Assembly: GCF_003334255.1 (NCBI RefSeq)
Contig: NZ_QOWU01000021.1
DNA length: 64,000 nucleotides
Origin: Escherichia coli
GTDB taxonomy: Bacteria; Pseudomonadota; Gammaproteobacteria; Enterobacterales; Enterobacteriaceae
Direction: 5' to 3' (one strand)
Every line of letters starts with the position of its first letter. Within the stretch, counting starts at the first letter, position 1. Below are positions 33,673-34,327 of the stretch, in pieces. Under the pieces are notes generated by a model. That model had not been told where the DNA came from, made no database searches, and saw only the letters and a program-made list of their open reading frames with translations. Made by a program: the position numbers and the translations under genes.

Positions 33673-33939
33673 ATGGACATTAACAACAAAGCCCGCATTC
33701 ATTGGGCATGCCGCCGTGGTATGCGCGAACTCGATATTTCAATCATGCCGTTTTTCGAACATGAGTACGACAGCTTAAGCGATGACGAAAAACGCATCTT
33801 TATTCGTCTGCTGGAATGTGACGATCCGGACCTGTTTAACTGGCTGATGAATCACGGTAAACCGGCCGATGCAGAACTGGAAATGATGGTCCGACTCATC
33901 CAGACACGGAACCGGGAACGTGGTCCTGTGGCAATCTGA
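33673..33939 (+). CDS. sdhE: FAD assembly factor SdhE (YgfY/CptB)
   Basis: 88-aa [38 protein letters not shown]... Confidence 0.93.
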
Positions 33940-34327
33940 TTTGCGCGTCTCCTGGCGCGCACAGTGGCTTTCCTTGCTGATTCATGGGCTGGTTGCCGCT
34001 GTTATTTTACTCATGCCCTGGCCACTCAGTTACACCCCGTTATGGATGGTGTTACTTTCGCTGGTGGTGTTTGATTGCGTTCGCAGCCAGCGGCGTATTA
34101 ATGCTCGCCAGGGGGAAATTCGCTTGTTGATGGACGGGCGTTTGCGTTGGCAAGGGCAGGAGTGGAGCATCGTCAAAGCACCGTGGATGATTAAGAGCGG
34201 CATGATGCTGCGTTTACGTTCTGATGGCGGTAAACGGCAACATTTATGGCTGGCAGCCGACAGCATGGACGAAGCTGAATGGCGGGATTTACGGCGGATT
34301 TTGTTGCAACAAGAGACGCAAAGATAA
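33920..34327 (+). CDS. ygfX: inner-membrane protein YgfX (CptA)
   Basis: 135-aa [37 protein letters not shown]..., GTG start overlapping sdhE 3' end by 20 nt. Confidence 0.9.

Follow-up and report, generated by a model that had tools for sequence, protein, structure and literature searches.

The sdhE–ygfX pair is most likely a vertically inherited core housekeeping operon of two genes in the Enterobacterales, in which YgfX would act as a probable and partly coupled partner of SdhE, and the toxicity attributed to YgfX would be an effect of its overexpression. The pair lies within a stretch of 64,000 nt of Escherichia coli DNA, hereafter the window, and its two coding sequences share a 20-nt dual-coding overlap that is strongly conserved. 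The toxin–antitoxin label carried by the locus is a contested claim of the literature that comparative genomics does not support. The anatomy of the locus, the families of both proteins, the conservation of overlap and start codon, the dual coding, the core syntenic inheritance and the absence from mobile elements are all matters of observation in the data presented below. The essentials of sdhE–ygfX are already known and annotated; every E. coli genome carries an annotation of the locus, whose toxin–antitoxin status has been disputed in the literature since 2012–2013. To this we make modest additions, namely a GTG start and 20-nt overlap that do not vary among the Enterobacterales sampled, the identity of the bases frozen by each reading frame, and a structural model of YgfX with a PH-like domain.

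Anatomy of the locus and conservation of the overlap

The genes sdhE and ygfX are located on one strand, adjacent and overlapping, in a co-directional two-gene layout. Open reading frame calls placed ygfX in the +1 frame relative to sdhE, with 20 nt common to both, and the limits of both genes were identical in the RefSeq annotation of an E. coli chromosome of 100% identity, so that the GTG start described in the first-pass annotation, 20 nt inside the 3′ end of sdhE, was borne out by both sources. RefSeq flanks the pair with ygfZ and fldB, both on the minus strand, and with xerD, dsbC and recJ. The features of the locus, in window coordinates, are the following:

33431–33672, plus strand: divergent ygfZ/sdhE intergenic region, from the ORF map and annotation
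33664–33669, plus strand: Shine-Dalgarno sequence of sdhE, AGGAAG, 3 nt 5′ of the ATG, read from the sequence
33673–33939, plus strand: sdhE (ygfY/cptB) coding sequence, ATG start, 88 aa; FAD assembly factor with RGxxE motif R15–E19
33908–33918, plus strand: weak Shine-Dalgarno-like purine runs GGAA and GGGAA, within sdhE codons, upstream of the ygfX GTG
33920–33939, plus strand: dual-coding overlap GTGGTCCTGTGGCAATCTGA, 20 nt, giving RGPVAI-stop when read for sdhE and MVLWQSD when read for ygfX
33920–34327, plus strand: ygfX (cptA) coding sequence, GTG start, 135 aa
34331–34360, no strand assigned: GC-rich hairpin between the convergent ygfX and fldB, from fold energy

The divergent intergenic region between ygfZ and sdhE presumably holds the promoter and 5′ UTR of the pair. 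A scan with the sigma-70 consensus returned no site upstream of sdhE, and across 79 species conservation of this region was poor except near the Shine-Dalgarno sequence. At the opposite end, the hairpin between ygfX and fldB showed a folding energy of −23.3 kcal/mol (z = −4.67), with none of 200 shuffled sequences being equally stable. Since its U-run sits on the fldB (minus) side, this hairpin is a probable terminator of fldB, and it may stop the sdhE–ygfX transcript too.

Several other elements were recognized in the window. On the minus strand, Rfam models matched a SIB RNA at 17778–17928 (133.8 bits), the antitoxin sRNA of an Ibs/Sib type I toxin–antitoxin locus, which places a genuine toxin–antitoxin element in the same window as sdhE–ygfX. 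The same strand carries 6S RNA (ssrS) at 18577–18760, as a full-length match of 139.8 bits, an ES036 sRNA match at 4664–4706, and naRNA4, a REP-derived nucleoid-associated RNA, at 32271–32348 between trhA and ygfZ. On the plus strand, prfB (38461–39559) contains its programmed +1 frameshift, where AGGGGGTATCTTTGAC closes an ORF of 25 codons and the remainder of RF2 is read on in the +1 frame.

Within E. coli, several complete genomes match the 1-kb stretch around the pair at 100% identity, and the sdhE–ygfX locus was present in 5426 of 5426 complete genomes of the species. A wider genome scan was seeded with an alignment of SdhE, which was chosen in view of the divergence of YgfX, too great for peptide patterns to work. 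Its best 80 loci came from 80 species, all of them Enterobacterales, and 79 loci were usable, the remaining one being cut at a contig end; the survey thus speaks for this order. In all 79 species among these best 80 loci, a GTG occupied the homologous position, the overlap measured exactly 20 nt in the +1 frame, SdhE had an ATG start and exactly 88 residues, and the gene order ygfZ–sdhE–ygfX–fldB–xerD was common to all. The stop codon of sdhE is TGA in 77 of the 79 loci and TAA in the other 2, and in most of them the GTG is the sole in-frame ATG, GTG or TTG 5′ of the conserved YgfX N-terminus. Conservation of the overlap in other genomes, which the first-pass annotation had put forward as a check of its reading, was thereby obtained in every species of the set, and the overlap is confirmed as real and more than a chance arrangement. 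The same annotation had held that its reading would be refuted if the two genes were frequently found apart and overexpression of ygfX were non-toxic. The genes were linked throughout the 79 species, and one endosymbiont, described below, has a ygfX but no syntenic sdhE.

We also collected representatives of the YgfX family through an exhaustive phmmer search, which yielded 133 clusters at 50% identity. The motif M-x-x-W-x-x-L-R-x-S stands at the called N-termini of these representatives, down to 27% identity, and the 20-nt overlap is kept in relatives whose YgfX is only 29–39% identical (L002, L003, L004 and L008). Exceptions to the common arrangement were found as well. One locus (L005) has a 14-nt overlap and an ATG start, one lineage (L006 and L007) has a 30-nt gap between the genes, and a gap of 37 bp has been described in Shewanella (PMC8621075). 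In Pantoea ananatis (L009, 2995–3030) the canonical start is replaced by GCG, and the sole candidate start is a GTG located 6 nt upstream, which gives an overlap of 26 nt. Many database entries from Pantoea give a YgfX of 104 aa that begins at an internal Met.

Dual coding and the translation of ygfX

The two reading frames leave distinct traces on the overlap. Across the 79 species, the mean entropy of sdhE third codon positions was 1.12 bits in codons 1–82 and fell to 0.54 bits in codons 83–88. All the variation within the overlap is confined to positions that are third in sdhE codons and second in ygfX codons; hence SdhE hardly varies in its tail RGPVA(I/M/L), and the changes show in YgfX at residues 2 (V/A), 3 (L/Q), 5 (Q/R/H/K) and 6 (S/C). 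Two fourfold-degenerate positions of sdhE nevertheless show no change at all: the T that ends the Arg83 codon CGT doubles as the centre of the GTG start codon, and the G that ends the Val86 codon GTG doubles as the second base in the TGG codon for Trp4 of YgfX. The constraint also acts in the other direction, since an ATG start would destroy the Arg-Gly of SdhE, which explains the exclusive use of GTG. Just 3′ of the sdhE stop codon, variation becomes three-base periodic in the ygfX frame, from which it follows that translation includes the N-terminal 31 residues of YgfX and does not begin at Met32.

This last point bears on the annotation of YgfX as a protein of 104 aa starting at Met32 (MPWPLSY...) with no overlap, as it appears in some database entries, including several from E. 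coli and Pantoea. In favour of that annotation, ATG outperforms GTG as a start codon; however, residues 1–31 are conserved family-wide, with W4 and S11 nearly invariant, the periodic variation in the ygfX frame begins directly after the sdhE stop, and the start position aligns in relatives of 27–39% identity. A start at Met32 would moreover remove the strand 2–8 and the first membrane helix from a structural model whose pLDDT exceeds 93 throughout. We regard the shorter protein as very improbable, and the conservation of the N-terminus together with the structure model led us to rule out Met32 as the true start.

How ribosomes reach the GTG is a separate question. The first-pass annotation had stated that the overlap makes the two genes translationally coupled. 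This is plausible, because the start codon is not ATG, its Shine-Dalgarno sequence is weak and its position inside the upstream ORF is fixed, yet an overlap alone is no proof of coupling and a spacing of −20 nt is unfavourable to it. The anti-Shine-Dalgarno duplex upstream of the GTG averaged −3.2 kcal/mol over the 79 species, in comparison with −5.6 kcal/mol for sdhE, and windows taken inside sdhE gave a background of −1.8 ± 1.9 kcal/mol, 20% of them matching the ygfX value. The stop/start spacing falls outside the −4 to +3 optimum of termination–reinitiation pairs, and according to a 2025 review coupling is best at −4 to +3 nt and falls faster with larger overlaps than with larger spacings (PMC12548453). 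Coupling at −20 nt, if present, would probably be inefficient and give less YgfX than SdhE, and it could possibly proceed by unfolding of the RNA or by weak back-scanning. Two further devices were considered and discarded. A regulatory hairpin masking the GTG was no more stable than expected (z = −0.8 versus shuffles), and its pairing is lost in Serratia and Yersinia sequences. A programmed frameshift fusing SdhE to YgfX was rejected too, since the junctions of the fusions found in metagenomes differ in position. These fusions, of 166–217 aa, occur in metagenome assemblies (P0002, P0003, P0005, P0008, P0009, P0010, P0013 and P0022), each cluster holding one sequence except P0005, which holds two, and their junctions lie in or before the overlap; the differing junctions and the almost exclusively single-sequence clusters suggest that single-base indels arose at random or that the assemblies contain errors.

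It is possible, if on balance doubtful, that the overlap has no regulatory role at all, free 30S subunits initiating ygfX at its own weak Shine-Dalgarno sequence and GUG. The 20-nt overlap would then be a frozen accident, kept only since any indel would damage the tail of SdhE or the N-terminus of YgfX, and the functions of the proteins would be those of the preferred reading. The rapid decay of coupling with larger overlaps (PMC12548453) agrees with this alternative, and so do the GGAA/GGGAA stretch at a suitable distance from the GTG, the distant relatives that function with a gap of 30 nt (L006) or 37 bp (Shewanella), and the fact that dual coding alone can explain the invariance, with RGPVA in one frame and the start codon and Trp4 in the other. 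On the other hand, the Shine-Dalgarno sequence of ygfX lies only within the top 20% of random sdhE windows and is thus not distinctive, and ribosomes translating sdhE necessarily pass the ygfX start. The GTG was never exchanged for ATG in 79 species, which would also argue for a regulated start, though the Arg-Gly codons of sdhE force GTG as well. We favour partial coupling: since the GUG precedes the sdhE stop by 20 nt and has only a weak Shine-Dalgarno sequence, initiation at ygfX probably depends in part on ribosomes that translate or finish sdhE, which might set a low, fixed ratio of YgfX to SdhE.

Distribution of the pair and the toxin–antitoxin label

The patchy or mobile distribution expected of toxin–antitoxin modules is not what we found for sdhE–ygfX. 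Among 72,556 plasmid records, 12 matched the pair, mostly on the megabase scale. The small plasmid record that we inspected (H13; L092, NZ_CP114989.1, 51 kb, labelled Enterobacter hormaechei) carries bglA, ygfZ, sdhE, ygfX, fldB, xerD, dsbC, recJ, prfB and lysS, and it is probably a mis-assigned chromosome fragment because these core genes keep their chromosomal order. Several PLSDB records of 0.7–5.4 Mb also look like chromosomes. Of the two matches in the phage collection, one was a Salmonella contig of 691 kb and the other a fragment of 1.5 kb, and no genuine phage copy of the pair was present in that collection. Likewise, no PADLOC or PHROG family matched the pair, and its GC content (0.50–0.52) resembles that of its flanks.

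One genome deserves separate mention. The 1.5-Mb chromosome of Ca. Symbiodolus clandestinus (CP152425.1; L010/L011, 3001–3444) retains an intact ygfX located 82 nt from a divergent ygfZ, and sdhE is absent from the syntenic position between them. The 3′ end of this ygfX overlaps the convergent nadB by about 35 nt. Both in this endosymbiont and in Plesiomonas (L008), ygfX adjoins nadB, followed by rpoE–rseA, in replacement of fldB–xerD, and sdhE precedes ygfX only in the latter. NadB, the L-aspartate oxidase, is a flavoprotein and a paralogue of SdhA and FrdA.

The first-pass annotation had presented the pair as a type IV-like toxin–antitoxin module. It has indeed been so reported, under the names CptB/CptA, but the report is disputed by work in Serratia and Shewanella and by the viability of a ygfY deletion, and the locus is core, syntenic and non-mobile. 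In accounts of Masuda 2012 given by later papers, overexpression of YgfX in E. coli led to growth arrest and lemon-shaped cells and inhibited the polymerisation of FtsZ and MreB, and YgfY relieved these effects (PMC8621075, PMC3985639). The A. baumannii homologues acted as toxin and antidote in E. coli, neutralisation requiring 5–10 mM IPTG for the ‘antitoxin’ (PMC8132199). Conversely, the Fineran laboratory found no toxin–antitoxin phenotype in Serratia, yet SdhE and YgfX interact (PMC3985639; PMC5042078), an interaction which contradicts the definition of type IV systems, where toxin and antitoxin make no contact and the antitoxin acts on the target. In Shewanella, ygfY and ygfYX deletions share one phenotype and co-expression gave no rescue, and the pair was judged not to be a toxin–antitoxin system (PMC8621075). 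Co-transcription of the two genes has been reported both in Serratia (PMC5042078) and in Shewanella (PMC8621075).

If the pair were a genuine type IV module, YgfX would be a membrane toxin that blocks the polymerisation of FtsZ and MreB, SdhE would moonlight as an antitoxin that stabilises the polymers of both, and the overlap would keep the antitoxin made first and in excess. We consider this unlikely. It draws on Masuda 2012 for E. coli and on ElBanna 2020 for A. baumannii genes expressed in E. coli, on the name ‘Cpta_toxin’ given to Pfam family PF07254, and on the fit of an antitoxin-first two-gene operon with a weaker downstream start to toxin–antitoxin architecture. Against it stand the core, syntenic position of the pair throughout E. 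coli and in all 79 species of the Enterobacterales set, together with its absence from genuine plasmids and phages; the occurrence of SdhE in alpha- and beta-proteobacteria and in eukaryotes where YgfX is absent (PMC5042078); the interaction of the two proteins and the lack of a toxin–antitoxin phenotype in Serratia (PMC3985639); the shared phenotype of the Shewanella ygfY and ygfYX deletions (PMC8621075) and the viable ygfY deletion of E. coli (PMC5293155); the ygfX kept by an endosymbiont with a genome of 1.5 Mb, whose syntenic site lacks sdhE; and the neutralisation of A. baumannii toxicity only at very high induction of the antitoxin (PMC8132199). The growth arrest ascribed to CptA would be most economically explained as an effect of membrane-protein overexpression and not as a native toxin–antitoxin role. 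Pfam and many toxin–antitoxin surveys count ‘CptA toxin’ as type IV, which inflates the number of such systems per enterobacterial genome. The value of our result is in this sense curatorial, and the CptA toxin label is to be treated with caution.

Properties of SdhE and YgfX and comparison with known systems

The identity of SdhE is well established. The protein matches NCBIfam model NF008130 over residues 1–88 of 88 with 198.4 bits (cutoff 120), as well as PDB entries 1X6I, 6C12 and 6B58, and its RGxxE motif corresponds to R15-G16-M17-R18-E19, with R14, R15, G16 and E19 invariant in the SdhE alignment. SdhE serves SdhA and FrdA as their covalent-flavinylation factor and spans alpha-, beta- and gamma-proteobacteria and eukaryotes (PMC5042078). 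The ygfY mutant of E. coli is viable, and its defect is confined to succinate dehydrogenase: SDH activity is missing and succinate does not support growth (PMC5293155).

YgfX matches Pfam family PF07254 (E = 7.4e-50; residues 2–131 on model positions 1–132 of 133), and searches against PADLOC, PHROGs, NCBIfam and PDB sequences gave no match. It evolves much faster than SdhE: the median identity to the E. coli protein across 79 species is 73% for YgfX and 86% for SdhE, the minimum is 38% and 78%, respectively, and in Pantoea ananatis the values drop to 27% and 70%. In Kluyvera genomosp. 3 YDC799 (L042; CP022114.1) ygfX is broken by two frame changes after codon 69, and is either a pseudogene or the product of long-read sequencing errors. 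The AlphaFold2 model of YgfX (pLDDT 94.7) consists of an N-terminal strand (2–8), a two-helix membrane hairpin (12–31 and 36–62), a six-stranded beta domain (strands within 65–112) and a C-terminal helix (118–134). The first strand of this model is supplied by the N-terminus that the overlap encodes. YgfX is thus confidently modelled as a membrane hairpin of two helices bearing a PH-like beta domain, although no sequence match to the bPH Pfam families was reported and a Foldseek search of the model against the PDB gave no significant match.

The mechanism that we propose joins both proteins. SdhE is soluble and promotes the covalent attachment of FAD to SdhA and FrdA. YgfX is a small inner-membrane protein whose N-terminal strand and C-terminal beta domain are predicted to form a single PH-like module on the cytoplasmic face, held at the membrane by the two-helix hairpin. 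From the published SdhE–YgfX interaction and the strict linkage of the genes, we infer that YgfX is most likely a membrane-bound partner or modulator of SdhE. In Serratia, ygfX affects prodigiosin and not SDH (PMC5042078).

A more specific reading can be offered only tentatively, and we hold it to be rather doubtful. YgfX could be, instead of a toxin, an adaptor with a ‘split’ PH-like domain and a membrane anchor, which would dock SdhE at the inner membrane, near the membrane subunits of SdhA/FrdA, and docking may use the tail RGPVA(I/M); the frozen 20-nt GUG overlap would fix a low ratio of YgfX to SdhE, and toxicity would arise when excess YgfX titrates membrane partners. To our knowledge, no loss-of-function phenotype ties YgfX to flavinylation. 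Were the adaptor reading true, YgfX, a protein still without function, would gain a role in the assembly of complex II.

With CbtA/CbeA (YeeV/YeeU), the pair that defines type IV toxin–antitoxin systems, sdhE–ygfX has in common a two-gene, antitoxin-first operon and a reported ‘toxin’ that targets FtsZ and MreB, with no sequence or family relation between the two systems. CbtA/CbeA resides in cryptic prophages, with a patchy distribution and several copies, whereas sdhE–ygfX is single-copy, core and syntenic, and SdhE has its own conserved role in enzyme assembly and binds YgfX. The model of YgfX also recalls the bacterial membrane-anchored PH-like (bPH) proteins, of which YgfX is at most a candidate member; the first strand of YgfX lies N-terminal to the hairpin, so that the domain appears ‘split’. 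The locus of E. coli K-12 and of Serratia sp. ATCC 39006 (ygfY–ygfX, cptB–cptA) is the same locus as the one described here, with no differences. Finally, SdhE is a full-length member of the SDHAF2/Sdh5 family, represented by the five-helix bundle 1X6I and by the complexes with SdhA (6C12) and FrdA (6B58). Most lineages of this family, in alpha- and beta-proteobacteria and in mitochondria, have no YgfX partner gene (PMC5042078), and enterobacterial SdhE is set apart from them by a conserved tail at its C-terminus, RGPVA(I/M), whose codons lie in the overlap.
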